The notes under the pieces are model-generated. The model did not search any database, was not told where the DNA came from, and saw nothing but the letters and a program-made list of their open reading frames with translations. Made by a program: the position numbers and the translations under genes. Shown piece after piece: positions 2,610-61,910 of a stretch of DNA of 64,000 nucleotides (positions are counted from its first letter, which is position 1; each line of letters starts with the position of its first letter). The DNA is from a virus: the IMG/VR virus record IMGVR_UViG_3300021085_002380; one strand, given 5' to 3'.

Positions 2610-2943
2610 TTTCGTTATTTTTCTTCGTTGTGGAATGTGTCCACGGCTCGAAGTCCCATCCTGCCATTACTAAACAAGCTGTTTGGTCTGGATATAAAGC
2701 TACTAAGCTCCATGCTCCAGTATCTTGATTAACATGAAATACTACCTCAGGGGTTTGCCTTTCACCGGTAGTATTAAATAAAGAACCGCGGCCTTTCCAA
2801 AGTCCATCTTGGCCTGTTGCTTGAAGAATGCTACCAGCTTCTTGAAATGATCCGCATGGTAAGCGTATACTGTTTGCTTGTTCTTGTGCAGTAGCAAAGC
2901 TTGCTACAAGTAGTCCTAGAGTAAGAGTAATGTATTTAATCAT
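2590..2943 (-). CDS. Exported hypothetical protein
   Basis: Likely start MIKYITLTL with signal peptide; two Cys. Confidence 0.65.
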   Translation of the reverse strand: MIKYITLTLGLLVASFATAQEQANSIRLPCGSFQEAGSILQATGQDGLWKGRGSLFNTTGERQTPEVVFHVNQDTGAWSLVALYPDQTACLVMAGWDFEPWTHSTTKKNNEIEQKSP

Positions 2944-2944
2944 T

Positions 2945-3454
2945 TTAGTCTCCTGTACTACCAAAACCTCCATCACGGTCTGTCTTAGAAACGATCGGCT
3001 CAGCAGTTTCATTGATTTCAATTTTTGTAGTCTTTTCGATGATACACTGTGCTAGCCGTTCACCGTTTTCAATCATAACAAGACTGTCTGTTAAATTAGT
3101 CATCATAATGAAAGTTTGTTCTACGTAGTCTGAATCTATAATACCAACATTATTCGCTAATGTCAATCCTTTTTTTAGCGCAACACCCGAACGCACGTAC
3201 ATTTTCATTACATGGTTTTCAGGAATGTCAAACACTAATCCTGTTGGTACTAGTACTCTTGTATCAGGCGGGAGTTGAAACGCATCTCTAACTTTGCCAA
3301 CACCTTTGACGGCAACGTGGGTTTGTTTGTTCCAATTGTTATAGGCTAAAAGTTTATCACCATTTTGAAAGCAACCTTTAATATCAAAACAAGCCGAGCC
3401 TTCTGTTGCGTATGCTGGCAACTCAGCTTTTTCATTCACTTTATATACATTCAT
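2945..3454 (-). CDS. dut: dUTPase (trimeric)
   Basis: SACFDI, RSG, GIIDSDY, RLAQ and RDGGFGSTG motifs. Confidence 0.95.
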   Translation of the reverse strand: MNVYKVNEKAELPAYATEGSACFDIKGCFQNGDKLLAYNNWNKQTHVAVKGVGKVRDAFQLPPDTRVLVPTGLVFDIPENHVMKMYVRSGVALKKGLTLANNVGIIDSDYVEQTFIMMTNLTDSLVMIENGERLAQCIIEKTTKIEINETAEPIVSKTDRDGGFGSTGD

Positions 3455-32586: not shown

Positions 32587-32937
32587 ATGGCAGGTAAGAA
32601 AAAAGAAGCTGCACCATCGAAATATGACCCCAAAGCCGCAGATTATAACGGCGATGGAGTGATCACTAACGAAGAACTTGATATGCAGCGTAAAATGTTA
32701 GAAATGGAAGATGCTGATGCGCAACGTGATGCTATTCGTAAGATGGCATGGTTTGCTTTATTTGGCTTGTTGCTTTACCCAATAGGGATAATGCTAACTT
32801 CTTGGTTGGGATTAGATACTGCAGCACAGCTAATTGCAGATATTGCTCCAACATATTTTGCTTCAATTGCAGTCTTAGTTTCAGCCTTCTTTGGTGCTGA
32901 TGCATTGAAAGGCCGCGGCGGAAATAGCGACGACTAA
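32587..32937 (+). CDS. EF-hand-motif membrane protein (holin-like, 2 TM)
   Basis: DYNGDGVITNEE loop followed by two TM helices; AGGAG RBS. Confidence 0.7.
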   Translation: MAGKKKEAAPSKYDPKAADYNGDGVITNEELDMQRKMLEMEDADAQRDAIRKMAWFALFGLLLYPIGIMLTSWLGLDTAAQLIADIAPTYFASIAVLVSAFFGADALKGRGGNSDD

Positions 32938-38035: not shown

Positions 38036-38043
38036 TATAAATA
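38036..38043 (+). promoter_or_regulatory. T4-type late promoter
   Basis: TATAAATA ~45 nt upstream of the plus-strand operon. Confidence 0.75.
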
Positions 38044-38086
38044 TATATAATAGAGTAAAGTATGCTTTTATCATTATTAATATGGG

Positions 38087-38659
38087 ATGAACATTATGCC
38101 AAGACATTTACTCTTTCTGTTTTTATTATTTATACCTTTCATTGGTCCAACCATAGCGGAGGCAGAGCCAATAGTTACAGAGAGCACAACAGACAGTACT
38201 ATTAACAGCAATAGTACATCGGAGACTACAGTCAATTCTCCACCGCCGTCGGCGATCGCTCCTTCGATTAATTCAGCCAATTCAGATTTATGTACCGTAG
38301 GTGTATCAGGCGCGGTTCAAACACAGATATTAGGTATATCAGGTGCCAAGATGGTTCGTGATATGAACTGCGAAAAACTAAAGAACGCTAAAACATTATA
38401 TGATATGGGAATGAAGGTGGCCGCTGTTTCGGTAATGTGTCAAGATCCTCGTGTATTTAATGCTATGATGGATGCAGGAACACCTTGCCCTTATGATGGT
38501 ATGATTGGTGATGCAGCTAAGGCGGCATGGATTGCCAATCGTGATGAACAGCCTGAAGATCCGCAAAGTAATATAATAAAGGATATGAACGATGAGACCA
38601 AGTCTACTTTGTTCGGCGGTGGCCTTGTGGGCGGCCTCCTTCTCTTATTGCTACTCTGA
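38087..38659 (+). CDS. Exported Cys-containing protein with C-terminal membrane anchor
   Basis: Signal peptide; S/T linker; 4 Cys; C-term GGLLLLLLL. Confidence 0.75.
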   Translation: MNIMPRHLLFLFLLFIPFIGPTIAEAEPIVTESTTDSTINSNSTSETTVNSPPPSAIAPSINSANSDLCTVGVSGAVQTQILGISGAKMVRDMNCEKLKNAKTLYDMGMKVAAVSVMCQDPRVFNAMMDAGTPCPYDGMIGDAAKAAWIANRDEQPEDPQSNIIKDMNDETKSTLFGGGLVGGLLLLLLL

Positions 38660-39491
38660 TACAACATATAGTTCAACTAATAACGCCGCGGCGGAAGCTT
38701 TAGCGTGGGCAATGAAAAATGTTTTACCTGATTCAACTGCACCTTATATCTCAGTAGAAATAAATGGTTTAGCTTATCAATATACAATGGTGAAAGATCC
38801 TGAGGCAGACGCAACTGTTACGATTTCAAACGAAGACGCTGCAAATCCTGGGACAAATATTTTTGAAGAAACAGATGATTGGAGTGGTAATCCTGGTGGA
38901 ACTGTAAGGAAATATTTTAGATTTGATTATACAGATTCTTCTAGGTGGGGAGATGGCGAAATAAGTGTTGAAGGCGAAGGTACGGTTACAGACCCATTTG
39001 TAGTTTACAATTACAAGATGGTAGTAGATGAAAGTTTCCAATGTCTTTCACCATTGTCAAATCCAAGTTGTCCTGGATATTCCACGGCACTGGCTGAGTA
39101 TTTAGCTTCGCTTGCGCAACCGCCGTCAATTGGTGATCCGTATTATGATGAGTGGGTCCAAGCAGAATTAAACCGTGAAGCAAATAGAGATGAGGAAGAA
39201 TTAGAACAAGCAGACAACAGTAATGAAGTAGAAGATGATTTGGAAGAGCAACTGGGTGGTAATAACAATATCGACAAGTTAGTTGATGGTGCCGCCCAGC
39301 AATCAATTTTAGCAAATTTATCGTTAAATCCAAAGATTGTACCATATTATGAAGTAACGATCCCGGGCGGCCAATACGAAGATACTTTAGTATTACCTTC
39401 GACAAGTTATCCGGATAATAGAAGAGCGATGAGAAACTTAGCATCAGACGCTAATCATAGATCTATGGTACGCTCACAATACGAACGATAA
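38592..39491 (+). CDS. Exported acidic protein
   Basis: Signal-like N-terminus; C..PLSNPSCPGY motif. Confidence 0.7.
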   Translation: MRPSLLCSAVALWAASFSYCYSDTTYSSTNNAAAEALAWAMKNVLPDSTAPYISVEINGLAYQYTMVKDPEADATVTISNEDAANPGTNIFEETDDWSGNPGGTVRKYFRFDYTDSSRWGDGEISVEGEGTVTDPFVVYNYKMVVDESFQCLSPLSNPSCPGYSTALAEYLASLAQPPSIGDPYYDEWVQAELNREANRDEEELEQADNSNEVEDDLEEQLGGNNNIDKLVDGAAQQSILANLSLNPKIVPYYEVTIPGGQYEDTLVLPSTSYPDNRRAMRNLASDANHRSMVRSQYER

Positions 39492-39502
39492 GGAGAAATT
39501 GT

Positions 39503-40003
39503 ATGTTCAAACATTTAATACTTGGCGGCGCAGCCATGATGATTTGCAGTTCTGCAGGCGCGGCAGAAACTCCAATTACTGGTAACGTAGCGTCAAAATG
39601 TTCGATTTATACGGACACAGCTGGTGTTTATGGTAACCCTACACCAGACGAATTAAGTACAACACCTGCGGACGGTGGTGTTTATCCGGTTGTACGCTAT
39701 GATGTTGCCATTGCAGACTATTACACCGCTAAAATTTCCTGGCCAATTTCGTTTTCATCTGCCCCGAGTCTTACCGACTCAGTAACATGGGATGGAGAAG
39801 TTACAGTAACGAATACATCAGATACTAATATGTCAGGATACGAAGCAGCTAAAATTGAGTACGACAACCACACTGAATACGATCTTAGTGTAGCTGGATC
39901 TACTTGGTTTTCAGTTGAGTCAGAAGCAAAATACGGTGTAGGTAAATCACTACCTGGTGGTGAATACAAGGCAAACGTTATTGCAGAGTGTATTGCGGAC
40001 TAA
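39503..40003 (+). CDS. Exported pilin/fimbrial-subunit-like protein
   Basis: Signal peptide; ITGNVASKCSI N-term; PGGEYKANVIAEC C-term. Confidence 0.55.
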   Translation: MFKHLILGGAAMMICSSAGAAETPITGNVASKCSIYTDTAGVYGNPTPDELSTTPADGGVYPVVRYDVAIADYYTAKISWPISFSSAPSLTDSVTWDGEVTVTNTSDTNMSGYEAAKIEYDNHTEYDLSVAGSTWFSVESEAKYGVGKSLPGGEYKANVIAECIAD

Positions 40004-40044
40004 AAGGTGTTAATTTGGGTAAAAAGTATATTGAGGGATTAAGA

Positions 40045-40419
40045 ATGAAGTATTTGGTGAGTTTGTTTATTATGTTAACTTGTACACCGGTTTTATCACA
40101 CGAATTGACACCAACATACCCAAAAATGCGCCCTGCATATGTTGACGGTGTGTTGGTGACAACTATGGATATATGGAATAGAAGAACCGATGTAGAATAC
40201 TACGAAATTGAAGTCTTTAATAAATATTGGGAGCCACTTCCGTTTGCTTCACAAGATAAAATAATAAAGATTAACTATTTGCAAAAGAAACAGTTTAACG
40301 TCTATATCAAATCTGAGCATGGAAGTAAAGCTGTATATATATGTACTACCTCTAAATTATTGAGGGAAGATGTACTATCAACCGGAGTAAAATCGAGGAT
40401 ATGCTCCAAGATAAAGTGA
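40045..40419 (+). CDS. Exported Ig-like protein, possible pilus chaperone-like
   Basis: Signal peptide; LTPT..., N....Y.IEV; terminal Cys pair. Confidence 0.45.
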   Translation: MKYLVSLFIMLTCTPVLSHELTPTYPKMRPAYVDGVLVTTMDIWNRRTDVEYYEIEVFNKYWEPLPFASQDKIIKINYLQKKQFNVYIKSEHGSKAVYICTTSKLLREDVLSTGVKSRICSKIK

Positions 40420-40426
40420 GAACATT

Positions 40427-40837
40427 ATGCGTTACATTATTTCATTGTGTTTGTTGTTGTTTACGACCACAGCAAATGCAGACTCTGGTTCGGTAAGTTT
40501 AGCATTGCCGAGCGCCCCAGGAAATTACCAATCTGATAAATTTAAGGCTGGTGATTTAGATTGTTCTAATGCCATCGGATCGGCTACACAACTTGAGCTC
40601 GGTGTAACTGGTCTTATTGACGGCGGTTATTATGATGATGTGAATCGATATATTAACGATAGACGTGTTGATAACGTCGGTGTATATGCAAGGATTGTTA
40701 TACCACTCGGCGCAAGACCTAAAGAAAGAATTGATTGTAATAGGTTATACGAAATGGAATTACAGTTAAAATCGCTGGAATTAGAACGTTTAAGAAGAGA
40801 GCTTCAGCAATTGAAAGAATTATCTTTTGAGGAGTAA
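40427..40837 (+). CDS. Exported protein with beta hairpin and C-terminal coiled coil
   Basis: Signal peptide ANA; two Cys; VYARIVIPL; leucine-zipper tail. Confidence 0.7.
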   Translation: MRYIISLCLLLFTTTANADSGSVSLALPSAPGNYQSDKFKAGDLDCSNAIGSATQLELGVTGLIDGGYYDDVNRYINDRRVDNVGVYARIVIPLGARPKERIDCNRLYEMELQLKSLELERLRRELQQLKELSFEE

Positions 40838-40839
40838 AC

Positions 40840-41502
40840 ATGGCTGAATTTGAATTTGCAGGAACCACGTTTAGAGGTGGTAAGATGTTTGCTGTTTTAA
40901 CGGCATTATCTACTTTAGGCGGCGGCGCATGGGCGGGTTTTGAATTTTATGCGGACTACATGGACATGAAAGAAATTGTTCAAAATATTGATATTGATGA
41001 AATTGCAGCTGCCAACGTGTTGCAATTACAAAAATTAGAAGATGCTATTGGATATACGCAAGACATTAAAGGAGATTTAAAAGGTGACATTAACAGGAGT
41101 GAAGAGTTAATATCATCGTTGGAAGATCAAATAATTGCAATGGAAACTACCGTAAGAACTTTACGTAAAGATGTTTACGATAAATTAGATACGTTTGAAG
41201 AGCGATTAAGAGTAACACTCAAAAGTAATCAAGATACGATGTCTGATTTACGTGATCGTATTAGTACTAATTTAGAAAACTCTGAGGCAAGAATTAAAGC
41301 TACACAAGCAAGCATTGGCACAACTCTTGAAGGCGTAAGAACAGAAATGAACCAAGTTCAAAAAGATGTAACTGCGTCTATCCGAGAAGTTGAAGCTGGT
41401 GTTCGCCAAACAGATAAAGATATAAGAGCTGATATGAAACAGCTTGATAGAGACATATCCGTAAAATTACAAGAAGCATTAGATAATCCATTATCAGAAT
41501 AG
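40840..41502 (+). CDS. Membrane-anchored long coiled-coil protein
   Basis: N-terminal TM helix then ~170 aa of heptads. Confidence 0.7.
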   Translation: MAEFEFAGTTFRGGKMFAVLTALSTLGGGAWAGFEFYADYMDMKEIVQNIDIDEIAAANVLQLQKLEDAIGYTQDIKGDLKGDINRSEELISSLEDQIIAMETTVRTLRKDVYDKLDTFEERLRVTLKSNQDTMSDLRDRISTNLENSEARIKATQASIGTTLEGVRTEMNQVQKDVTASIREVEAGVRQTDKDIRADMKQLDRDISVKLQEALDNPLSE

Positions 41503-41511
41503 GAGATAAAC

Positions 41512-41631
41512 ATGTCAGGACCAACGAGAACGTGTACAGCATGCGGCCATGATTGCCATTGTGATAAATCTGATTGTAAAAATTGCCAAAACGATGTTTG
41601 CGTAAAATGCAAATGTGAAAAAGATGTCTGA
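41512..41631 (+). CDS. Metallothionein-like Cys-rich peptide (39 aa)
   Basis: MSGPTRTCTACGHDCHCDKSDCKNCQNDVCVKCKCEKDV; AGGAG RBS; absent from the ORF track. Confidence 0.75.
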   Translation: MSGPTRTCTACGHDCHCDKSDCKNCQNDVCVKCKCEKDV

Positions 41632-42187: not shown

Positions 42188-42925
42188 ATGTTAGAAAATT
42201 GTGCAAAAATGGCAGAGATCGCCGAGCTTGCGTATATAGATGGGCCTGAAGCAAAACCTAAATATAAGAAACTAGGTTATACAACCCACAAGTTCATTGA
42301 AGTAAACGGTGCACAATGCCACATCATTTCAAATAAAGAAGAAATCGTAATTGCATTCCGTGGTACTGAGCCAAAAGAGTTTTCCGATATTAAGGCAGAC
42401 TTAAACGCTTGGCCAGATAAACCAAACAATGGACACGGATTGGTACATAACGGGTTTCAAGAAGAAGTAAATAAGGTGTGGCCTGATATTGAAAAGGCTC
42501 TATCTAAAATGAAAAGAATTGGAAAACATTTGTTTCTTTGCGGCCATTCTTTAGGAGCTGCAATGGCAACAATTGCAACAAGCCGACTCGGTGATAAAGT
42601 TACTGCTTTATATACATATGGGTCGCCAAGAGTAGGAACTAGAAAATTTGTTAAATCGTTTGATAATATACCTCATTTCCGCCATGTTAACAATAACGAC
42701 TTGGTCACTTGTGTTCCTTTTGCTGCAATGGGATATAGACACCATTCGCAACCGCGGTACATCAACTACTTCGGTCATATTAGAAAAATGAGCAAATGGC
42801 AAAGAACAAAAGATAAATGGCGTGGAAGATTACGTGCATTTAAAAAAGGAATGCCATTCGACGGAGCATACGATCACGGTATGAACCATTATTGTAAATA
42901 CACGAAAGAAAATGAAAATGTCTGA
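42188..42925 (+). CDS. Class 3 lipase
   Basis: IAFRGTE, VHNGF, GHSLG, YTYGSPRVG, NDLVTCVP and terminal DH. Confidence 0.92.
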   Translation: MLENCAKMAEIAELAYIDGPEAKPKYKKLGYTTHKFIEVNGAQCHIISNKEEIVIAFRGTEPKEFSDIKADLNAWPDKPNNGHGLVHNGFQEEVNKVWPDIEKALSKMKRIGKHLFLCGHSLGAAMATIATSRLGDKVTALYTYGSPRVGTRKFVKSFDNIPHFRHVNNNDLVTCVPFAAMGYRHHSQPRYINYFGHIRKMSKWQRTKDKWRGRLRAFKKGMPFDGAYDHGMNHYCKYTKENENV

Positions 42926-43160
42926 TGAAATTGAAGTACCAAAAATATTACAAAAGCCTGTGCCATTAAAAGATGAAGATACACCAGAAGGAACTTTTGA
43001 TTTAAGCTTTAGGGTAATGAATAATGAAGTAATAGGCTTTGCCATGCGGGTTGATGATTTTAAAGCAAAATGGCTTATCCTTGGTCTTATAGCTATTGCA
43101 ATACTAGGTTTTGTTGCAACAGCCTTTGGTCCAATGATAATGAGTACGTTTGGTGGCTAA
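42912..43160 (+). CDS. Small membrane protein
   Basis: C-terminal TM helix. Confidence 0.6.
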   Translation: MKMSDEIEVPKILQKPVPLKDEDTPEGTFDLSFRVMNNEVIGFAMRVDDFKAKWLILGLIAIAILGFVATAFGPMIMSTFGG

Positions 43161-47182: not shown

Positions 47183-48042
47183 GGATTGCTCATTTCTAAA
47201 TTATACTGGTCTAAACACATGTCTTCTAAAGTTTTAGTCAAATTGCATAATGTTGACGGCGTCGCCACGGCCGCTGCTTGATCACCTAATCTCCTGCCAA
47301 CGATTTCACGGTTCATACTAACACCTGTAACTTTTTCCATTGTATCAAGTACTTCATGGACTGTCCAACCGCTTTGAGAACCTAAGCATTCGTATGGAGT
47401 ATTACTAGGACCAGCTTCAACTGCTTTAACTATAGAACTGCTAAGATCACTGACGTGTATATAATCCCGAATGCAAGTACCGTCCCTAGTATCATAATCG
47501 TTACCAAAGACCTTAACATTGGGAAGCTTGCCAGCAGCCACCATAGCAGCAACACGGATAAGATGGGAAGCCACACCAAGTTGGCGGTTAACACCATCAG
47601 TACCGCTGACGTTAAAAAAGCGAAAAATAGTATACCCATCTGCTTTCTCCTTAATTACATCTTCTGCTCCTACCTTACTTCTTGCGTATGGAGAAGCCAT
47701 TTCAAACGCAGAACTTGTACTTGCGAATATAAAATTTTCTGTTCTGAGTTTTTCAACAGCGTTTTTTGTACCCATTATGTTAGTACGATAATACGCTGAT
47801 GGTTCTTTTAGTGATTGAGGAACGACGCTACGGCCTGCAAGGTGAACTACTGCGTCTCCCCAACCCATAAGCCAATGATCCATAAGATCTTGTACCCAAA
47901 ATTTATCACAGTACTTTTCCACATCATTATGTTCTTTATGAATATTTAAATCAAATCCATATACTGTGTGACCGTGTTCTTTTAACTGTTTACATACATG
48001 ACTACCAATGTATCCTGATGCGCCTGTAACCATTACCTTCAT
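47179..48042 (-). CDS. galE: UDP-glucose 4-epimerase / NAD-dependent epimerase
   Basis: TGASGYIGSH, YARSK, RFFNV and DGTCIRDYIHV. Confidence 0.9.
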   Translation of the reverse strand: MKVMVTGASGYIGSHVCKQLKEHGHTVYGFDLNIHKEHNDVEKYCDKFWVQDLMDHWLMGWGDAVVHLAGRSVVPQSLKEPSAYYRTNIMGTKNAVEKLRTENFIFASTSSAFEMASPYARSKVGAEDVIKEKADGYTIFRFFNVSGTDGVNRQLGVASHLIRVAAMVAAGKLPNVKVFGNDYDTRDGTCIRDYIHVSDLSSSIVKAVEAGPSNTPYECLGSQSGWTVHEVLDTMEKVTGVSMNREIVGRRLGDQAAAVATPSTLCNLTKTLEDMCLDQYNLEMSNP

Positions 48043-48557
48043 AGAGCTAATCGCCTAACTGCCACAACATCAGTGGCTTTAAATAATTTAATTGATACTT
48101 CATTATCTTGATTACCTCCAAGAATTCTGTAATAAACGTCTCCGCCGATTAACTTAAGGTCAATATAAAAACCAACATGACCTTCCCAAGGTTGTCCTCG
48201 TTTTAAAACGACAATGTCTCCATAATCTGGAGTATTAACTTGGTAACCTAATTCTGTAAAACTTCTTGCCATAAATGGATTTTCTGATACTGTTTCAGAA
48301 CCTGGGATACCAGACTCTCGCAACACAGCGTTAACATATGCTGCGCACCATTCAGTTTGAACAGGGTCTACTTTTAAAAACTTTCTTAACTCTGAACGCT
48401 GTTCTGTTTCCGAGTAACCTATGTATTTAGAGGCTTTCGTAATATACTCAAGGTGATCGTGGTTTGGTTCTGCATCAAGATATGAACAGCCTGCAAGACT
48501 ACCTATCAATATGCATGACTTGGGAAAACGTTTGAGGCGGTGGGCAACACCACTCAT
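48039..48557 (-). CDS. TIGR02594 / NlpC-P60-type peptidoglycan hydrolase, predicted lipoprotein
   Basis: WCAAYVN, GDIVV, GHVGF and LGGNQ; LAGC lipobox; start uncertain. Confidence 0.8.
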   Translation of the reverse strand: MSGVAHRLKRFPKSCILIGSLAGCSYLDAEPNHDHLEYITKASKYIGYSETEQRSELRKFLKVDPVQTEWCAAYVNAVLRESGIPGSETVSENPFMARSFTELGYQVNTPDYGDIVVLKRGQPWEGHVGFYIDLKLIGGDVYYRILGGNQDNEVSIKLFKATDVVAVRRLAL

Positions 48558-49311
48558 AAGTGAATAATTCATTAAGGTTACCAGTCCCTCCTTTGGTTTC
48601 CCACCACTGCTTAACATATCCATATGCGTGATTCGCCACATCTTTTAAATGTTGTGAATTTGGATCGTGAACTGTCGATGGAAATTTCGGTACGTTATGA
48701 TTAAATAGTGGGTGAATATAGAAAGTGCCTAATCCATATACGACATTTTCTATAGTAGGTTTATATTTTTTACTATCTTCACTCTTTAATATATACGGCA
48801 TCCTAAAATGTATTGTGTTATCATTTATAAAATAATAATCTATAATCTTTTTAGCATAATGGCGTTTAATTACATAGCACTGAAGACCATGATCATGACC
48901 ATTACGATGGCGTGGATACATTACAGCCCAGCCTTCGTGCATACAGCACAGCTGGAGACCATCCCACAATACGCCAAACTCCTTAACATAATCCTCATAA
49001 ACAAAGTTCCAATGTTGAATAGTGCTAAAGTCACAGTCATCTTCAAAGAATGCGGCTTGTTCATCGTCAGTATTTTCATACCACCATTTAATGGTTAGGA
49101 GATGAGAAGTAGTAGCACCTAATGGTAGTATATCCAAGGTGTCACGGTCGCCAACAATCTTTAAATTGCTGTCTTCGAGTCTTTTGTATTGTAGGACGGT
49201 TCCATCTAAACCGAGTCTATCAAACTCGGAATTCATATAGTCTCTGCGTTCAACACTTTCTTCAAGGTTGACAACATAACACTTTGGAAATCCTTTAAGC
49301 TTAGGATGCAT
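48499..49311 (-). CDS. GT25 glycosyltransferase
   Basis: YVVNL....RR, SHL and FFEDD. Confidence 0.85.
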   Translation of the reverse strand: MHPKLKGFPKCYVVNLEESVERRDYMNSEFDRLGLDGTVLQYKRLEDSNLKIVGDRDTLDILPLGATTSHLLTIKWWYENTDDEQAAFFEDDCDFSTIQHWNFVYEDYVKEFGVLWDGLQLCCMHEGWAVMYPRHRNGHDHGLQCYVIKRHYAKKIIDYYFINDNTIHFRMPYILKSEDSKKYKPTIENVVYGLGTFYIHPLFNHNVPKFPSTVHDPNSQHLKDVANHAYGYVKQWWETKGGTGNLNELFTYEWCCPPPQTFSQVMHIDR

Positions 49312-52738: not shown

Positions 52739-53149
52739 TTATTTAGATAATTCACTGAAAAATATGTCTGACATAACTGCTTCTAATTCGTATGCTTCTT
52801 TTTCCCACGGTAAAGAATAGTAGTCTCCGTCGTATGGTTTACCGTTCCAACGCGATCGCCTGTTACCTATCCCAGAAACAAGCTCACCGTTTATATATTG
52901 TTTTGCGTGGACAAACTCGTGAAACAGAGTCATGATTACCATTTTCTTATTAAGCTTTGGATTGACAAATAATGTTATACCATCTTCGTCATCGTAGTCG
53001 CAATAGCCGGCACAGTCGTTATCAAATTCTCCACCAAAATCTATTTCTACAGACTCGTCTATTTCAAGGAAGTCTGATGCAAACAGTACAGCCTTATCCA
53101 TAAGATCATCGGATATTTTGTTTGGCTTTCCATAACTAACATAATACAT
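52739..53149 (-). CDS. HExxH metallopeptidase-like protein
   Basis: TLFHEFVHAKQY...PWEKEAY. Confidence 0.8.
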   Translation of the reverse strand: MYYVSYGKPNKISDDLMDKAVLFASDFLEIDESVEIDFGGEFDNDCAGYCDYDDEDGITLFVNPKLNKKMVIMTLFHEFVHAKQYINGELVSGIGNRRSRWNGKPYDGDYYSLPWEKEAYELEAVMSDIFFSELSK

Positions 53150-54498
53150 TATGATTCCAACTCGTCAAGATCTGTTGTGAATTGTTTTGCTGGTGTTGTC
53201 TTAGACCAGAACTTAAGATCCTTTTCAGCCTCTTTGATTTCTTTCTCCAATGCCTTTACCATTTCCTGTGTAAGGCTTAGTATATTAATACGGAGACAAC
53301 GGTCAACATCATCGTAGTTACGCTGTGCATCCGTTTCAATGTAAATCTGCTCTGATACATCAGCTTTCTTTTTGTCTTTAAACTCAATACGATTATCAAG
53401 TACTGCTTGAATGAATTGCATTTTAACATTCAGCCAACGCATTTCCTCTTCAGCTTCTTTCTTGCGCAAATCAATACGCTGCTGAAGAACACCCATACGG
53501 AATTCGCAAAAGTCTTTAATAAGATGACGTTCGTCTTTATATTCGCGCAGCTTTCCGTCAAATCCAATTACTGTTAAGTTTTCAGTTAATGGCTTTGATA
53601 GTTTAAATTTTGAAATAACTTTTGCGTTAGTCCATGTTGATGAAGTGTTTTGTTTTAGTTTAACTTCAAATTTAAAACCGGATTTATCGCAAAGATCTTC
53701 GTAGGAAACGATATCTCCGTCTTCTTCTAGCTTGTCGAGTACTTTAACATAGCCTTCTCTGTCAAAGCCATACGGTACTTCAGTTATTTCTAATACTGTT
53801 TTACTCTTCTTTTCAAAACAACCAAGAACTGTGTATTTATCCTCAGTTTTGTCATAGTTTACGGTACCTTTGAAGTCCGGAAAGGACACTGGAAGCCTTT
53901 TCGATATATTACCATACGTCACATATTCGCGACAGGCACGAGAAAGTGCGTCAGCGCTTCGAGGTAGTATGTTTGTAGCAAAACCAGTTGCAATACCTTT
54001 AGTTCCATTGGTCAACACGAGTGGAATAACTGGAATATAAAACGCAGGTGGCTCGTGTTCAGGATCGCTGTGCTGTGGAGCTAGATCTAAATCACGGATA
54101 TACTTTTTGAAATTTTGATGTAAACGAGTGTAAACATATCGAGCTGCACCGGGCTCTTGAACTAACCGAGTACCAAACGATCCTCGACCTTCAACTAAGC
54201 AAACGTTATTGTTCCACTCTGCGGCCATAAGTTGACCTGCGCCAGCTGCGCTTGCCTCGCCGTGGTTATAACCATAATCTGATATAATACCAGCAACCGC
54301 TGATACCTTTTTGAAATCGTTTTTAGAATTTAGGATTGATGAATATAAGTAAAAGCGCTGAACTGGTTTCAATCCGTCAATCATATTTGGAATTGCTCGT
54401 GATTCAACCGTGTACATCGCAAACGATAACCATTCGTTCCTGGCAACTTTTGATATTGGATATTCATTAGCTTCAGTTGTGAAATCTAAAAGGCTCAT
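53149..54498 (-). CDS. gp52: Type II topoisomerase medium subunit gp52
   Basis: RAIP.MIDGLKPVQR, YNHGE, AARY (catalytic Tyr) and GIATGF. Confidence 0.97.
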   Translation of the reverse strand: MSLLDFTTEANEYPISKVARNEWLSFAMYTVESRAIPNMIDGLKPVQRFYLYSSILNSKNDFKKVSAVAGIISDYGYNHGEASAAGAGQLMAAEWNNNVCLVEGRGSFGTRLVQEPGAARYVYTRLHQNFKKYIRDLDLAPQHSDPEHEPPAFYIPVIPLVLTNGTKGIATGFATNILPRSADALSRACREYVTYGNISKRLPVSFPDFKGTVNYDKTEDKYTVLGCFEKKSKTVLEITEVPYGFDREGYVKVLDKLEEDGDIVSYEDLCDKSGFKFEVKLKQNTSSTWTNAKVISKFKLSKPLTENLTVIGFDGKLREYKDERHLIKDFCEFRMGVLQQRIDLRKKEAEEEMRWLNVKMQFIQAVLDNRIEFKDKKKADVSEQIYIETDAQRNYDDVDRCLRINILSLTQEMVKALEKEIKEAEKDLKFWSKTTPAKQFTTDLDELES

Positions 54499-54826
54499 TT
54501 AAAATACGTCCCGTCTGTGTAGTGTGTACCGCTGTTTTGAGTTGCCCACCATAGGCAGTTTAATCTATTATATCTAGAGTACCAAGCACCTTTATTAGTT
54601 ACTCCCATTTCAGCTCCTCTGATTCTCAATTCACGATACCACAATATTAAATTAATGATTCTATCCATTCTACAATATTAATCTCCATATGTCAACCGAT
54701 AATTGCAATACACTTTCCATCCTTCCCACAAGCTATATGATATAACTGGGCCGATGTATGGAAAGAATAAAAAATTTAGTATTAACCACGCACAAAAGAT
54801 TGCAGCTAACATATCATACCATTGTA

Positions 54827-56656
54827 TCATGCGAACATATACTCCTTACGTAATGCTGAGTCTTTACCAAACATCATTTGAAAAATACTTGCATCATCAA
54901 CTGTAACAGTATCATATTGCGGATCGTTAATAATACTATCATATTCGTTTTCAGTTAATGAACCGAGACCCTTGATGTAACGGTGTTTCCAATTTGGATT
55001 TTTTTGTTTATGATCGTTTGCACTATCGTAATCATAAAACCAAGTAACCTTATCTTTAAATGTTGAAATCATCATAGGTGTACGAGTAATCTTTACGCGT
55101 TTTTCAGTCAATAGCCGTGGCCAGAATTTGAAAAAGAATGCAATCAGCAATGGACTAATATGGCCAATACCATCATGGTCAGCATCAGTTAGAGTTGCAA
55201 TGCTTTCATATGTCATATTGTCAACACTATTAGGATTAGTAATATCAAGTCCTAAAACCGCAACGAGCTCAGAGAGTTCTTTGTTCTTCAATACATCAGC
55301 AGGTTTCATATCCCATGTATTCATAATAACACCACGAAGCGGGTATGCCCCAACCTTATTAGCATCGCGAACCTTAAGTAAGAAACCCATAGCTGAGTCA
55401 CCCTCAACAATCTTCAAAGTTGCGTTTGGTTTGTTGGCAGCAATATGTTTTGCAACCTTAACGCGGCGTAGGCCTTTCTGAGCAAGCGTAGCGGCACGTT
55501 TATCAGCTGCAATCTTTCTCGCAAGTTGCGCTTCGATGATAGGATCAATAAGCTCAGGAGTATTTAAAATTTTGCGAGCAAAGAAAACAGCTTCTTTAAT
55601 TCCTGCGGCTAATGCGTGTTCTTTAACGTTTCCAGTTGGGTTTGTTAAACGCTCTTTAGTTTGGCTGTCAAATTTTGGATTAGTAAAATTGCGAGCAAAC
55701 ATAATAAACGTAAGATTACCTTTACAATGATTACGATTGATTTCAATCTTGTGTTTACGTTTAATCATAACGCACAATTCTTCAACAATGCTATTCATTA
55801 CAAAATCAACATATGTTCCACCTTGGCGTGTATTAACACCGTTCACAAAACTGTTTGAACGAAACCCGTCTGACGAGTGAGCAATAAAGAACGACAAGTT
55901 ATCAGATTTTTCTATAATTGCTGGCTGGTCGCCTACAAACATTTTAGAATACTTTTTAAGATCGTTAACTTTAATACGTTTCTTATTGAATGAAAATGTA
56001 ATTTCAGGAAATGCCATTTGCAAACTGATAAGACGATCTTCAACTAAAGAAATCGTATCGTATTCGTTTAGGCTATTACATTCAAACAGATCAAAGTCAG
56101 GAACAAATGAAACTTCAGTTCCGTTGCCTGCTTTGTTCATTACGGATTCTTTAATTGTTTCAGCGCCGTTAGTACAAGTAACAACTTGGCATTTGCCACC
56201 GTTCCATGTTTTGCCTGTAAATTTTGAAGACAAGAAGTTAGTCGCCGCAGATCCTACGCCGTTCGTTCCGATAGTTACTCGCTCATCATCAAAGGATGTA
56301 CCTGCATTAACACGGGTCCACGCCGCGGTTGCTTGCGCTATCTTACTTCCTGTGGTTTCATCGTAAACCAATTCATGCGGTATACCGCGGCCGTTATCTG
56401 TTACGGTAATTGAGTTGTCCATTTTGATAGACACGTCAATTTTATTTGCATATTTGAAATTCGTGCGAATTGCTTCATCTATTGAATTATCTAATATTTC
56501 ATCAATCATTTTTGATAAAGCTGGAACGTATTCAACTCTATCCCATTTGCCCATCATAAAACGCTCAATAGGTTCACGGGCGCTTGATCCCATGTACATA
56601 CCAATGCGTTCACGAACGTGTTGACGAGCTGTTAAGATTTTAAATTGTTCAGACAT
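54827..56656 (-). CDS. gp39: Type II topoisomerase large subunit (gp39+gp60 fused)
   Basis: EILDNSIDE, DNGRGIP, EGDSA, PLRG, DADHDG and YIKGLGS. Confidence 0.97.
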   Translation of the reverse strand: MSEQFKILTARQHVRERIGMYMGSSAREPIERFMMGKWDRVEYVPALSKMIDEILDNSIDEAIRTNFKYANKIDVSIKMDNSITVTDNGRGIPHELVYDETTGSKIAQATAAWTRVNAGTSFDDERVTIGTNGVGSAATNFLSSKFTGKTWNGGKCQVVTCTNGAETIKESVMNKAGNGTEVSFVPDFDLFECNSLNEYDTISLVEDRLISLQMAFPEITFSFNKKRIKVNDLKKYSKMFVGDQPAIIEKSDNLSFFIAHSSDGFRSNSFVNGVNTRQGGTYVDFVMNSIVEELCVMIKRKHKIEINRNHCKGNLTFIMFARNFTNPKFDSQTKERLTNPTGNVKEHALAAGIKEAVFFARKILNTPELIDPIIEAQLARKIAADKRAATLAQKGLRRVKVAKHIAANKPNATLKIVEGDSAMGFLLKVRDANKVGAYPLRGVIMNTWDMKPADVLKNKELSELVAVLGLDITNPNSVDNMTYESIATLTDADHDGIGHISPLLIAFFFKFWPRLLTEKRVKITRTPMMISTFKDKVTWFYDYDSANDHKQKNPNWKHRYIKGLGSLTENEYDSIINDPQYDTVTVDDASIFQMMFGKDSALRKEYMFA

Positions 56657-58106: not shown

Positions 58107-59600
58107 ATGACTGACGTTGTAAATGTTGAACAGATTAATGCTGTTTATTTGAAAGTAACCGCAGATCCTGGAACTCGTCAAGAGATTCAGCAATTCTTTT
58201 CATTTAGACCAAATAATTATCAATTTACTCCTGCATACAAAAATCGTATGTGGGATGGTTGGATACGTCTGTATCAGCCAATGCGTCCAACTCTTTACGT
58301 AGGTTTAATGAAACACTTAGTTAAATTTTGCGAAGATAGAGGTTATGAAATTAATGCTGACGAAGATCTGATACACGGCGATGATATTCCTGATGATTAC
58401 GGTTATCAAATTGCAAGAGATGTAAATTGTAAGTTCGAGCCTCGAGATTATCAGAACGATTATGTTGTTAGTGCATTGAGAGACCGTAGATCATTATCAT
58501 TATCTCCAACTTCATCAGGTAAATCTTTAATCATTTATCTTATGCAACAACATTATTACGAAACATATGGTCATAGAACTTTAATTATTGTGCCTACAAT
58601 TGGTCTTGTTCATCAGATGGCTGGCGACTTCGAAGACTATGGTTGTGATCCTAGTTTGATATATAAAATCCAAGGTGGTGTTGATAAGAATACTTCGGCA
58701 CCTATTGTCATAAGTACTTGGCAATCATTGATTAAACAACCAAAAGATTGGTTCTCTCAATTCAAAGTAGCATTAGGAGATGAGGCTCATTTGTTTCAAG
58801 CTAAGTCTTTGCAGAAAATCATGGAAGGTTTAGACGAGTGCTATTACCGTCATGGATTTACAGGTACTCTAAAAACTGAGGAAAGTAAAACGCACCAACT
58901 TGTTCTTGAAGGTTGCTTTGGGCCAGTACGTCGCTTTGTTAATACTAAGGATTTAATTGAAAGCGGGACAGTTGCAGATTTCAACATCAAAGCAATTGTT
59001 CTTTCTCATAATAACGAAACTCGTAAAAAGTTTAAAGACGCTTTCAAACAAGTTAAAGAAACTCAGAAAAAATACCCAGCTGAAAGAGAGTTTATTGTTA
59101 ATAACGAAAAGAGAAACATATTCATTCGTAATTTGTTATGGTCTCTTAAAGGTCAAAATAACTTAGTGTTGTTTGATTTAGTTGAAAAACATGGTAAGAT
59201 ATTAGAGCCACTCCTTCGGAGAGACGATCGTCAACTACATTTTATATATGGCGCAACAAAAGGTGAAGAACGCGAGCGTATTCGTCATATGATTGAAAAC
59301 GATCCGATTAAACAACATGACATTCTTGCATCTTATGGTGTATTCAGTACTGGCGTTAATCTTAAGAAATTGGATAACGTAATCTTTGCGTCTGGTTCTA
59401 AATCTGAAATCAAAGTACTTCAATCAATTGGACGGACTCTTCGAAAAGGTAACGATGCTGATAAAGCTACGCTGTATGATATTACTGATGACCTGTCGGT
59501 AGGATCGTTTGAAAACTATACGCTCAAACATTTCCGCAAACGTATTGAGATTTATGGTTCTGAACAATTCCCATATAAGATATATACAGTTAACATCTAA
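58107..59600 (+). CDS. uvsW: UvsW helicase
   Basis: WDG.IRL, RDYQ, SPTSSGKS, DEAH and QSIGR.LR. Confidence 0.97.
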   Translation: MTDVVNVEQINAVYLKVTADPGTRQEIQQFFSFRPNNYQFTPAYKNRMWDGWIRLYQPMRPTLYVGLMKHLVKFCEDRGYEINADEDLIHGDDIPDDYGYQIARDVNCKFEPRDYQNDYVVSALRDRRSLSLSPTSSGKSLIIYLMQQHYYETYGHRTLIIVPTIGLVHQMAGDFEDYGCDPSLIYKIQGGVDKNTSAPIVISTWQSLIKQPKDWFSQFKVALGDEAHLFQAKSLQKIMEGLDECYYRHGFTGTLKTEESKTHQLVLEGCFGPVRRFVNTKDLIESGTVADFNIKAIVLSHNNETRKKFKDAFKQVKETQKKYPAEREFIVNNEKRNIFIRNLLWSLKGQNNLVLFDLVEKHGKILEPLLRRDDRQLHFIYGATKGEERERIRHMIENDPIKQHDILASYGVFSTGVNLKKLDNVIFASGSKSEIKVLQSIGRTLRKGNDADKATLYDITDDLSVGSFENYTLKHFRKRIEIYGSEQFPYKIYTVNI

Positions 59601-60845: not shown

Positions 60846-61910
60846 ATGAAAATAGCAATTATTACAGATATGCATCTCGGCGTACGGGGTGACTCTAAAG
60901 TATTCTTGGATCATCAAGAAAAGTTTTTTAGCAAAATATTTTTCCCATATTTAGACGAACATGGTATTAAGACTGTACTTGACCTCGGCGATACTTTTGA
61001 CCGACGTAAGTATGTTAACTATGTTACACTCGCAAGAGCTAAGAAAATGTTCTTTGACGAATTGTCAAAACGTGACATTGAGTACCATGCAATTGTTGGA
61101 AACCATTCTGTATATTATACAAACACCAACGAAGTTAACTCGATGAACCTATTGCTTCAAGAGTATTCAAACTTCAACATTTACCAAGACAATCCAATTG
61201 AGTTGACATTTGGGTCAACTAGTGTTATTATGGTTCCATGGCTTACAAAAGATAATATGGAAAAAAGTCTTACGGTAATAAAAAACTCAACTGCAAACAT
61301 TTGTATGGGCCACTTTGCTATCCAAGGTTTTGAAATGTTGAAAGGTGCAATTAACGACCACGGTTTACAAAAAGACGTGTTCACTCATTTTGAGCAAGTT
61401 TACTCAGGACACTTTCACCATCCTTCAGAGTATGGCAATATTAAGTACCTTGGCGCTCCGTATGAAATGACTTGGTCCGATTACGAAGGACGTCGTGGTT
61501 TCCGTATACTTGATACTGAAACACGTGGATTGGAATGGATCTTAAATCCGTTTCAAATTTATCATAAGATAGACTACGACGATACCGATATGACTATTGA
61601 AGAAATTGCATCCTTGGATACTGATAATATCAAAGATGCATATATTAAAGTGATTGTGAAAGAACGTTCCAATCCATACATATATGACTTGTTCATTAAT
61701 AAATTAACTGATGCAGGCGCCGCTGATGTTAAAGCTATTGAGGACAGTCTTAATTTAGAGTCAGAAGGGGTTGAAGATATCCTTGATGAAACAAAGGATA
61801 CAAAAGAAATCCTACATAGTTATATTGACTCTCTTGACACAAAGGTTGATAGGAAAGATATTAAAATGCTAATTGATGATTTATATATTGAGGCACAGCA
61901 GGTTGCATGA
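60846..61910 (+). CDS. gp47: Recombination nuclease gp47 (Mre11-like)
   Basis: TDMHLG, LGDTFDRRK, GNH and SGHFH. Confidence 0.97.
   Translation: MKIAIITDMHLGVRGDSKVFLDHQEKFFSKIFFPYLDEHGIKTVLDLGDTFDRRKYVNYVTLARAKKMFFDELSKRDIEYHAIVGNHSVYYTNTNEVNSMNLLLQEYSNFNIYQDNPIELTFGSTSVIMVPWLTKDNMEKSLTVIKNSTANICMGHFAIQGFEMLKGAINDHGLQKDVFTHFEQVYSGHFHHPSEYGNIKYLGAPYEMTWSDYEGRRGFRILDTETRGLEWILNPFQIYHKIDYDDTDMTIEEIASLDTDNIKDAYIKVIVKERSNPYIYDLFINKLTDAGAADVKAIEDSLNLESEGVEDILDETKDTKEILHSYIDSLDTKVDRKDIKMLIDDLYIEAQQVA

Follow-up and report, generated by a model that had tools for sequence, protein, structure and literature searches.

In phages such as lambda (Rz/Rz1), T4 (PseT.3/PseT.2) and T1 (gp11), the step of lysis that follows cutting of the wall, at the outer membrane or its tethers, is carried out by spanins. 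T1 gp11 is a unimolecular spanin whose two ends carry a signal and a membrane anchor, respectively. Other phage genes directed to the envelope are accessory: lambda bor and lom and T5 llp lie also beside lysis or tail-fibre genes, llp being next to the T5 receptor-binding gene, and T5 Llp and T4 Sp and Imm act by superinfection exclusion or receptor masking. T4 RI is membrane-anchored with a periplasmic domain, and in T7-like genomes lysis genes are also found within the late structural operon. In chaperone-usher pilins such as FimA and FimG, a Cys pair links strands A and B. The window analyzed here, a whole stretch of 64,000 nucleotides, comes from an uncultured marine T4-like phage and carries an envelope-targeted block of six genes in one orientation (38087-41502; Table 1). 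From its gene neighborhood, we tentatively propose that the block encodes a late envelope-spanning complex serving the outer-membrane step of lysis, a reading that is quite possible if somewhat short of probable.

All six ORFs of the block were judged real in an ORF check and, as the initial annotation had stated, are consecutive genes with a signal peptide or a membrane anchor. The N-termini of g1-g5 show a hydrophobic h-region and small residues at -3/-1, followed by a mature N-terminus that is sharply conserved in the alignments, whereas g6 is a coiled coil anchored by an N-terminal membrane helix. Signal peptides were called with a crude in-house rule, which fires on 77-97% of orthologues versus 21% of background ORFs, together with the alignments, and export is thus assigned by sequence criteria. 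The count of five genes with paired Cys in that annotation is also correct, since invariant Cys residues are found in g1 (C69, C95, C118, C134), g2 (C151, C160), g3 (C33, C163), g4 (C100, C120) and g5 (C46, C104) but not in the orthologue alignment of g6. Searches of Pfam, NCBIfam, PADLOC and PDB sequences gave no match for the block, g1 included, apart from coiled-coil noise for g6, and the PHROGs matches are confined to unnamed, function-unknown families for g1 (phrog_20531, 2e-12) and g5 (phrog_37374, 7e-7). Within the window, the block is surrounded by non-structural genes. In many loci, homologs of a small membrane protein encoded downstream (Table 1) stand directly after g6 or else separate it from g5.

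Table 1. Features of the six-gene block and its surroundings in the window.
Feature	Position	Strand	Length (aa)	Sub-module	Description	Basis
Box	38036..38043	+			TATAAATA, T4-type late-promoter-like box heading the + strand block	Exact match
g1	38087..38659	+	190	A		ORF and alignment
g2	38592..39491	+	299	A		ORF and alignment
g3	39503..40003	+	166	B	'Pilin-like'	AF2 pLDDT 82
g4	40045..40419	+	124	B	'Chaperone-like'	Alignment; AF2 pLDDT 84
g5	40427..40837	+	136	B		ORF and alignment
g6	40840..41502	+	220	A		Sequence and conservation
Membrane protein	42912..43160	+	82		Small, C-terminally anchored; recurrent neighbor, module membership uncertain	

The six genes indeed follow a TATAAATA box, which lies 44 nt upstream of the first ATG of the block. 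This motif is not enriched across the whole window (11 found versus 10.3 expected), and its position is conserved in T4-like relatives: [TC]ATAAATA occurs at most 200 nt upstream of g1 in 41/56 and 27/45 of them, against 3.8% of background windows, at a median distance of 40 nt (68/101 relatives). Among podovirus-type relatives, none (0/62) has it within the same 200 nt. The box may therefore act as a promoter, which would make expression of the block late.

The gene-neighborhood search that had been suggested as a check finds the six genes together in every complete copy. Their order is kept in 146/146 complete copies among 192 IMG/VR loci and also in MAG-binned contigs, and the six are the only gene families universal in the 192 loci. 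The block is spread over hundreds of IMG/VR contigs from the ocean, on myovirus-, podovirus- and T5-like backbones of about 40 kb to more than 300 kb, and is among the more widespread uncharacterized phage gene sets in marine metagenomes. It consists of two units that are also found alone. Sub-module A (g1, g2, g6) occurs without B in cultured SAR11 phages and Roseobacter phages, and sub-module B (g3, g4, g5) travels together without A in T5-like Vibrio phages.

In sub-module A, g1 has a signal peptide, a Ser/Thr/Pro-rich linker, a very conserved 4-Cys domain, an acidic linker and, at the extreme C-terminus, a hydrophobic tail of about 12-16 residues; it is predicted to be a type I inner-membrane protein. 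Its clusters in the ESM Atlas are viral only, and homologs are encoded by Pelagibacter phages HTVC115P, 033P, 202P, 023P, Baldr and Mosig, Roseobacter phages CRP-810 and CRP-207, and Ralstonia phage RSP15. The signal peptide of g2 is followed by a beta-rich N-domain with one Cys pair, an acidic low-complexity middle and a conserved C-terminal motif. The gene begins within the end of g1, in another frame, and shares 68 nt with it; with longest-ORF starts an overlap of at least 62 nt is seen in 172/172 loci. The long start of g2 is the real one, because starting at the alternative M41 would leave out the invariant residues N31, A32 and W39. Family searches with g2 gave no match; gp53 of HTVC115P matches it weakly (16 bits), with a C-terminal ending that is similar by eye. 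The third protein, g6, comprises a short N-terminus, one membrane helix, a long coiled coil and a conserved C-terminal L-D-N-P-L motif, and would have an i-spanin-like topology with a cytoplasmic N-terminus and a periplasmic coiled coil. Its homologs are HTVC115P gp49, CRP-810 gp51 and one ORF of ctXG6705. CRP-810 gp51 has been deposited as 'lysozyme', a name without Pfam support. Against Rz spanin families g6 gave no significant match, the best being a weak one of the distant ctXG6705 relative to the Rz-like spanin phrog_312 (E 0.0067).

In sub-module B, the signal peptide of g3 is followed by a conserved 12-residue N-terminal peptide and a beta-sandwich. The start and end motifs that the initial annotation had noticed in this ORF are both there and, as P-I-x-G-x-V-x-x-K-C and G-x-Y-x-A-x-V-x-A-x-C, nearly invariant in the alignment. 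Homologs of g3 form 1914 clusters (90%), none of them named; a profile search of 1.84 billion representatives returned only 111, all metagenomic, and in a cultured phage the homolog is Vibrio phage Bennett gp148. The next gene, noted earlier as coding for a small beta-rich exported protein, does so: g4 is all-beta in the AF2 model and has a signal peptide, after which the mature form of 106 aa is a single PapD/MSP-type Ig domain with the invariant Cys pair. Throughout the marine set the mature protein begins, without variation, with H-E-x-T-P-T-Y-P, and the homolog in Bennett lacks the N-terminal His. In g5, a signal peptide precedes a small Cys-bridged beta region and a charged C-terminal coiled coil. 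With tblastn, g5 matches 51 T5-like Vibrio phage records, and its HMM hits the Bennett ORF L197:4983-5360 with 53 bits.

After the six families themselves, the commonest neighbors in the 192 loci are lysis genes. Recurrent among them are a GTA_holin_3TM holin (1.2e-23; phrog_3427), SleB-type Hydrolase_2 (8e-29), GH108 with PG_binding_3 (8.6e-29), a GH19-like endolysin and an EF-hand two-helix membrane protein. Of the complete modules, 110 have at least 2.5 kb downstream; an endolysin lies within 3 kb in 64 of these, and 82 have some lysis-type gene, counts that overstate independence because the loci are phylogenetically related. A SleB-type endolysin lies beside the block in 20/57 and 17/55 T4-like loci, and podovirus-type loci have GH19 (39/80) or GH108 (18/80). 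Thus, on unrelated phage backbones the block adjoins holins and endolysins of three unrelated families, and the association is seen again in MAG-binned contigs. In the locus L065, g1-g6 are preceded by a tail fibre, a virion protein and a TM-coiled-coil protein, in that order, and followed by an EF-hand membrane protein, a holin and an endolysin, with no lipoprotein nearby. Lipoproteins flank related units in two phages: in Bennett, g3-g4-g5 and a lipoprotein lie directly upstream of an annotated holin and M15 endolysin, and in CRP-810, the g1-like gene comes after a TM-coiled-coil gene and one for a lipobox protein whose Cys motif resembles that of g1 (19 bits), arranged like an i-spanin/o-spanin pair. 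Neither a credible lipobox ORF nor a lipoprotein spanin candidate was found anywhere in the genome of HTVC115P, which carries sub-module A; the lysozymes annotated there are about 25 kb from this sub-module, in the early region. In the present window, no recognized endolysin or holin adjoins the block, and the nearest lysis candidate is a lipobox- and TIGR02594-containing protein 6.5 kb off on the other strand. The initial annotation had suggested that the phage builds a structure in the periplasm or across the envelope, with lysis among its possible roles; this survives broadly, and the neighborhood speaks for lysis more than for adhesion of infected cells.

On the proposed lysis reading, the products of the block would work with the phage lysis genes in a complex that spans the periplasm. 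The C-terminal tail would hold g1, and the N-terminal helix g6, in the inner membrane, and g2-g5 would be released into the periplasm and stabilized by disulfides. The coiled coils of g5 and g6, with the Ig-like g3 and g4, would extend the assembly towards the outer membrane, and once the wall is cut the complex would act on this membrane or its tethers, as spanins do elsewhere. The topology and the complex itself are deduced, its role from the gene neighborhood only, and the case for lysis is one of guilt by association, since accessory envelope genes also sit beside lysis or tail-fibre genes. A bolder version, that the block is a hitherto unrecognized multi-protein lysis machine common to several marine phage lineages, in which g1 and g6 are the inner-membrane anchors of a disulfide-stabilized periplasmic assembly with a strand-exchanging g3 handled by g4, and which replaces lipoprotein spanins in hosts such as SAR11, seems rather unlikely.

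The accessory envelope genes suggest another reading, in which the exported proteins would act late in infection to modify or obstruct some structure of the envelope, by superinfection exclusion or receptor masking, so that other phages are kept out or progeny escape loss on debris. The whole set of six is directed to the envelope, and the block adjoins tail-fibre genes in L065, HTVC115P, CRP-810 and Bennett; in the T5-like Bennett, moreover, the small lipoprotein follows g5 near large tail-fibre-looking genes, a placement that recalls T5 llp. However, such genes normally vary with the receptor, whereas these sequences are very strongly conserved among phages that infect different hosts: the g1 domain is 52-58% identical between SAR11 phages and this T4-like phage, a similarity that counts for the lysis reading, as it is easier to square with a conserved target in the envelope than with a variable receptor. 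PADLOC models of defense and exclusion proteins do not match g1-g5 and give coiled-coil noise only for g6, hundreds of lytic genomes keep the block like a core unit, and the predicted late expression is a poor fit for early competitors, though it fits protection of progeny. This explanation is unlikely on balance, although worth keeping in mind.

Still less likely is an usher-less fiber resembling chaperone-usher pili, in which g3 would polymerize by donation of its N-terminal strand, with g4 as a one-domain chaperone, into a periplasmic or surface filament. The predicted folds of g3 and g4 are both Ig-like. The Foldseek search that had been suggested puts PapD-type chaperones on top for g4 (the top 10 are PapD, DraB and FimC, followed closely by FaeE and Caf1M; E about 1e-3, TMq about 0.5) and pilin domains first for g3 (PapG pilin domain, CfaB, FimG; E 1.6e-3, TM 0.40-0.50), all of them marginal. 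With VIA-align, g4 gave a CsxA domain (10.0), MSP (8.9), FimC (8.8), SafB (8.8) and YadV (8.4), so that N-domains of chaperone-usher chaperones and MSP domains rank top in two aligners and g4 has the chaperone N-domain fold of the PapD-like/MSP superfamily in its AF2 model; the top 50 for g3 were other beta-sandwiches only. The nearly invariant N-terminal peptide of g3, with alternating hydrophobics around a Gly, is unstructured in the monomer model and, as also in FimG and FimA, stands before the first Cys; g3, g4 and g5 stay together where the other three genes are absent. On the other hand, hhalign of g3 against 17 E. coli fimbrial subunits gives the pilin-like N-terminal motif a probability of 66% while signal peptides are left in but 1.2% after trimming, hhalign of g4 against six E. 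coli chaperones gives 0.2-0.4%, and neither a Pfam Fimbrial or SCPU match for g3 nor a PapD match for g4 was found. In addition, g4 is one Ig domain rather than a two-domain boomerang (PapD_N and PapD_C), and the invariant Cys pair of g3 bridges its first strand segment and its last, pointing to a closed sandwich that has no open groove. The earlier observation that no usher-sized beta-barrel gene is visible holds both for the window and for the conserved neighbors in the 192 loci, no other pore is present in any of these loci, and SAR11-type hosts are not known to have chaperone-usher systems. The fimbrial reading is thus weakly supported: the Ig-like folds stand, and the profile comparisons, the single-domain g4 and the Cys placement speak against it.

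The lysis neighborhood would equally suit a periplasmic sensor or regulator of lysis timing, antiholin- or lysis-inhibition-like as T4 RI/RIII, instead of an executor at the outer membrane. The EF-hand two-helix membrane protein and holins directly after g6 in many loci suggest a signal input to the holin, and g1 and g6 are membrane-anchored with periplasmic domains, like T4 RI. Known antiholins, however, are single small proteins and usually holin-specific, whereas the module lies beside three different holin types and its six conserved proteins look structural, their coiled coils and Ig domains being more in keeping with an assembly than with a sensor, which leaves this reading distinctly improbable. 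That the genes code for virion or ejection proteins, with N-terminal hydrophobic segments that are not export signals, is very unlikely: in HTVC115P and L065-type podoviruses they do lie inside the structural operon, flanked by tail-fibre genes and large internal-virion-protein-like proteins, but this position is not diagnostic given the T7-like arrangement of lysis genes, five of the proteins have canonical n-h-c signal peptides with conserved cleavage-site residues and sharply conserved mature ends, the invariant Cys pairs are typical of oxidizing compartments, and the genes around the block in this window are non-structural.

The two-sub-module make-up, the lysis-gene association on unrelated backbones and the lack of a lipoprotein spanin candidate in HTVC115P are new here. 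The module bears on how phages of SAR11, roseobacters and marine vibrios, many of which have no recognizable spanins, breach the outer membrane. As a lysis device, it would extend the holin-endolysin-spanin scheme by a new class and have consequences for viral lysis rates in the ocean; should it instead build a filament or block receptors, it would be a phage-made envelope structure of a new kind. The module is now testable, because each sub-module occurs in cultured phages, namely Thalassavirus vibriophages (g3-g5) and pelagiphages and roseophages (g1, g2, g6).

Among known systems, T5 Llp, lambda Bor/Lom and T4 Sp/Imm resemble the block in being exported or membrane proteins that act on the host envelope and are encoded near tail-fibre or lysis genes, but they are single lineage-specific genes, unlike a strongly conserved six-gene unit of fixed order. 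Chaperone-usher pili (PapD-PapA/K, FimC-FimA/G, Caf1M-Caf1, CsuC-CsuA/B) share with it a beta-sandwich subunit-like protein followed by a PapD/MSP-type Ig protein, whose nearest solved folds include FimC, SafB, YadV, PapD, CfaA and FaeE, as well as the strand-like peptide around a Gly before the first Cys and the alternating G-x-Y-x-A C-terminal strand of g3. They differ in the usher, the second chaperone domain and the Cys placement, without profile-level sequence similarity; g1, g2, g5 and g6 have no counterpart there, and the genomic context of the block is phage lysis. Six proteins are far more than any known outer-membrane lysis device needs. Spanins consist of one or two proteins, whereas the block has six, with two Ig-like domains; no lipobox, the defining feature of o- and u-spanins, is found in g1-g6, and no lipoprotein ORF is embedded in or adjacent to g6. 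Like spanins, nevertheless, the block is, by its predicted expression, late, is envelope-targeted, has conserved periplasmic Cys and lies in or beside holin-endolysin cassettes. Its g1, which combines a terminal signal with a membrane tail at the opposite end, resembles u-spanins such as T1 gp11; the g1/g2 overlap in different frames recalls the overlapped Rz/Rz1 genes; and g6 resembles i-spanins in its N-terminal membrane helix and putative periplasmic coiled coil, with a holin and an endolysin beside it in many loci.

The six genes g1-g6 form a block of constant composition. Three IMG/VR scans yielded 192 loci with a g3 identity of 49-90%, and iterated HMMs placed g1-g2-g3-g4-g5-g6 in this order on a single strand in all 146 loci that hold the whole block, the incomplete gene patterns among the 192 being compatible with contig ends. 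After clustering of the flanking ORFs, only these six families were universal (155-188 loci each, the next family being present in 91), in a set of loci that are phylogenetically related and not independent. The carriers are podovirus-like genomes of about 30-60 kb that encode a portal, a major head protein and tail fibres, T4-like contigs of about 150-180 kb, and one contig of 328 kb. In a scan of GTDB species genomes, the only contigs with the block were MAG-binned or from single cells and bore inconsistent taxonomic labels; they are probably phage contigs. For g3, 1,914 homologous clusters exist in a collection of 5.8 billion proteins, with no source name beyond 'hypothetical', and a g3-profile HMM search of 1.84 billion representatives found only 111, of which all those checked were metagenomic. 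Distant g3 relatives (P0205 and similar) form small, purely metagenomic clusters without a Pfam match, and P0205 itself had no match in scans of viral and genome contigs.

Features of the window, with position, strand and remarks
Feature	Position	Strand	Remark
EF-hand plus two-membrane-helix protein	32587-32937	+	116 aa; 5 kb upstream of the block
TATAAATA box	38036-38043		divergent gap between minus-strand operon end (37981) and plus-strand run start (38087)
g1	38087-38659	+	
g2	38592-39491	+	
g1/g2 overlap	38592-38659		68 nt, different frames
g3	39503-40003	+	
g4	40045-40419	+	
g4 mature N-terminus	40099-40122		H-E-x-T-P-T-Y-P
g5	40427-40837	+	
g6	40840-41502	+	
Cys-rich ORF	41512-41631	+	39 aa, 9 Cys; directly after g6
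Class 3 lipase	42188-42925	+	PF01764, 8.5e-22; no signal peptide; two genes downstream of the block
TIGR02594 ORF	48039-48641	-	200 aa; 177 aa from an internal start
Relative of a 121-aa lipoprotein family	2590-3021	-	
Topoisomerase II subunits	53149-56656		
UvsW helicase	58107-59600		
gp47/gp46-type SbcD/SbcC nuclease subunits	60846-63619		

The initial annotation described a box followed by six ORFs with signal peptides or membrane anchors, five of them with paired Cys, and the box match, the ORFs and the orthologue alignments bear it out. The box motif is not enriched over the window (11 found, 10.3 expected). [TC]ATAAATA lies at a median of 40 nt upstream of g1 in 41/56 and 27/45 T4-like relatives, compared with 3.8% of background windows; all 62 podovirus-type relatives lack it there. 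From this conserved position, it is reasonable to infer that the block is expressed late in T4-like backbones. The six ORFs are packed tightly, and where g1 and g2 overlap, the same DNA encodes the g2 signal peptide and the hydrophobic tail that ends g1; the overlap is at least 62 nt in all 172 loci having both genes (longest-ORF starts), and gp54 and gp53 of phage HTVC115P overlap too. In orthologue alignments, g1-g5 open with n-h-c signal-peptide-like segments of variable sequence, with small residues at -3/-1 and then sharply conserved mature N-termini. These segments were judged from the alignments and a crude home-made rule, which is positive for 77-97% of orthologues versus 21% of the remaining ORFs at these loci. 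In g6, a membrane helix close to the N-terminus precedes a long coiled coil. Four Cys are invariant in g1 and two in each of g2-g5, and g6 has no invariant Cys; 10-16 hydrophobic residues terminate g1 in 26 of 26 diverse orthologues. The mature N-terminus of g4, invariant in 27 diverse marine orthologues, abuts the predicted cleavage site. An N-terminal His exposed by signal cleavage recalls the copper 'histidine brace' proteins; a CopC/YcnI-like copper site was rejected, as g4 has no second conserved His and no such fold among its top 50 structural matches, and the Vibrio phage homologue lacks the N-terminal His.

Outside the window, the block occurs as two separate units. The g1 domain is present in the cultured Pelagibacter phages HTVC115P, HTVC033P, HTVC202P, HTVC023P, Baldr and Mosig, in the Roseobacter phages CRP-810 and CRP-207, and in Ralstonia phage RSP15. 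Unit A (g1, g2, g6) without g3-g5 is found in HTVC115P, CRP-810, the freshwater podovirus ctXG6705 and many MAG contigs, where a larger protein with a signal peptide comes after g1 and the g6 homologue lies 2-3 kb further on. Unit B (g3, g4, g5) has collinear homologues in 51 records of T5-like Vibrio phages (Thalassavirus) without g1, g2 or g6 (23.8, 24.3 and 53 bits, respectively, against a small ORF set), and the gene next after them encodes a 67-aa lipoprotein. Since each unit stands alone in some phages, the block of the window is unit B nested within unit A. The window itself, which has four tRNA genes, a G+C content of about 36% and the replication and recombination genes in the table, is assigned from its sequence to a T4-like phage. 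Among 50,697 deposited phage genomes, it has no close DNA relative, the sole match being 125 nt of its first gene in two Pelagibacter phages.

The commonest non-module neighbours of the block are lysis genes. These encode a three-helix holin of the GTA type (PF11351, 1.2e-23; phrog_3427 'holin', 1.5e-33), another membrane-protein family (phrog_2524), a cell-wall hydrolase of the SleB type that starts with a hydrophobic segment (PF07486, 8e-29), a GH108 muramidase carrying PG_binding_3 (8.6e-29), a GH19-like enzyme (weak Pfam match, E 0.004, with the typical motif by eye), and an EF-hand plus two-helix membrane protein. An endolysin lies no more than 3 kb away in 64 of the 110 complete blocks that have 2.5 kb or more of downstream sequence, and a lysis-type gene of any kind accompanies 82, these loci again being phylogenetically related. 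SleB-type endolysins accompany T4-like loci (20/57 and 17/55), and GH19 (39/80) and GH108 (18/80) enzymes the podovirus-type loci; the endolysin family thus changes with the backbone, and the six-gene block is constant throughout. The same lysis-type neighbours occur on MAG-binned contigs, including those with unit A only. At one related locus (L065), the order is tail fibre, virion protein, small TM-coiled-coil protein, g1-g6, EF-hand membrane protein, holin and endolysin, and in Vibrio phage Bennett, about 430 nt with one small ORF (gp152) separate unit B and its lipoprotein from the annotated holin and M15 endolysin downstream.

Several further genes are of note around the block. In 91 related loci, the EF-hand two-helix family neighbours the holin, either immediately following g6 or placed between g5 and g6, and it may be a calcium-sensing lysis regulator. 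The minus-strand TIGR02594 ORF (5.3e-24, above the curated cut-off) gains a lipoprotein-type signal, L-A-G-C, from its internal start; the family is presumably linked to cell-wall hydrolases, and the product is a candidate for an exported endolysin of this phage. The class 3 lipase may help to break down membranes during lysis, as LysB does; its homologues are found no more than 3 kb from the block in about 19 IMG/VR loci and on three MAG contigs. Upstream of g1, two more exported proteins are often encoded in about 25 T4-like loci (in locus L003, at L003:1299-1688 and L003:1756-2118). One has 130 aa and, as in a small outer-membrane barrel, an aromatic end (-F-N-F); the other is a 121-aa lipoprotein, and the window encodes a relative of its family. 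The Cys-rich ORF after g6 was considered as an embedded o-spanin and rejected, having neither signal peptide nor lipobox.

We tentatively favour, at somewhat less than an even chance, a late envelope-spanning assembly that serves the outer-membrane step of lysis. In such an assembly, g1 would be a type I protein anchored by its C-terminal tail, g6 a type II coiled-coil protein in the inner membrane, and g2-g5 disulfide-bonded proteins of the periplasm; the Ig-like pair, together with the coiled-coil regions of g5 and g6, would extend towards the outer membrane. Against this reading, accessory envelope genes cluster near lysis and tail-fibre genes too, and recognised wall hydrolases are not adjacent to the block in the window or to unit A in HTVC115P. 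Receptor masking or exclusion by the envelope proteins seems unlikely.

The initial annotation proposed an usher-less fimbrial or envelope-spanning complex, and a chaperone-usher-like fibre has some backing from predicted structure. AlphaFold2 models g3 (pLDDT 82) as a sandwich made wholly of beta strands, in which the nearly invariant first 12 mature residues are unstructured, and the model's first Foldseek matches in the PDB are pilin domains (PapG pilin domain, CfaB and FimG; E at least 1.6e-3, TM 0.40-0.50). The g4 model (pLDDT 84) is a single Ig domain, with PapD, DraB and FimC as its best Foldseek matches and FaeE and Caf1M ranked shortly after (E about 1e-3, TMq about 0.5), and its predicted fold is of PapD/MSP type with moderate confidence. 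At the sequence level, membership of fimbrial families is unsupported, with no Pfam matches. In hhalign comparisons with 17 fimbrial subunits and six chaperones of E. coli K-12, g3 reached a probability of 66% against pilins because the signal peptides aligned; with both trimmed to mature proteins, the value was 1.2% (P 0.046; 18 columns over x-I-x-G-x-V-x-x-C-x-I), and this apparent sequence homology was set aside. The pilin-like motif is hence a real resemblance but not a statistically distinguishing one. g4 scored 0.2-0.4% against the chaperones. The disulfide of type 1 and P pilins is A-B. The invariant Cys pair of g3 differs from it in joining the first and last strand segments, which suggests a closed sandwich. 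As was first noted for the window, no usher is visible, and no usher or pore-sized exported protein accompanies the block at the 192 loci. A chaperone-usher-like fibre is quite unlikely. Control of lysis timing, another reading of a block that lies beside holin genes, is very unlikely, and a role as virion proteins, for products that open with signal-peptide-like segments, is highly improbable.

Pfam, NCBIfam and PADLOC gave no meaningful match for the six proteins (coiled-coil noise only for g6), PHROGs returned unnamed families only, for g1 and g5, and profile searches of PDB sequences with the g1, g2, g3, g4 and g5 alignments gave nothing below E 0.19. The ESM Atlas holds viral-only unnamed clusters for g1 and no structure for g1 or g2; its SprA_N rows for g2 were sub-threshold (0.84) and disregarded. 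The g3 model had no informative match in BFVD. Three deposited labels have no Pfam support: 'lysozyme' for CRP-810 gp51 (L195:6162-6584), a g6 homologue; 'OmpA family protein' for CRP-810 gp53 (L195:4776-5531), a g1 homologue; and 'transport protein tonB' in ctXG6705 (L196:5227-6333). Titles and abstracts on HTVC115P, Thalassavirus and phage spanins of SAR11 suggest no description of the module. New here are the division into units A and B, the repeated setting of the block beside lysis genes on different backbones, the finding of unit A in cultured phages, and the control for signal peptides, under which the apparent pilin homology disappears.

The favoured role in outer-membrane lysis invites comparison with the spanins. 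Family-level similarity to them is absent, the best E being 0.0067 for a single distant g6 relative, and this counts against the favoured role. A whole-genome lipobox scan found no credible lipoprotein ORF in HTVC115P, so a canonical o- or u-spanin is apparently missing from this phage. In CRP-810, two abutting genes immediately precede the g1 homologue, first one for a TM-coiled-coil protein and then one for a lipobox protein with a Cys motif like that of g1; their order is that of an i-spanin/o-spanin pair. Known outer-membrane lysis devices need fewer than six proteins, and the present module differs from spanins in comprising six proteins without any lipoprotein component; both the number and the missing lipoprotein are further points against the favoured role.
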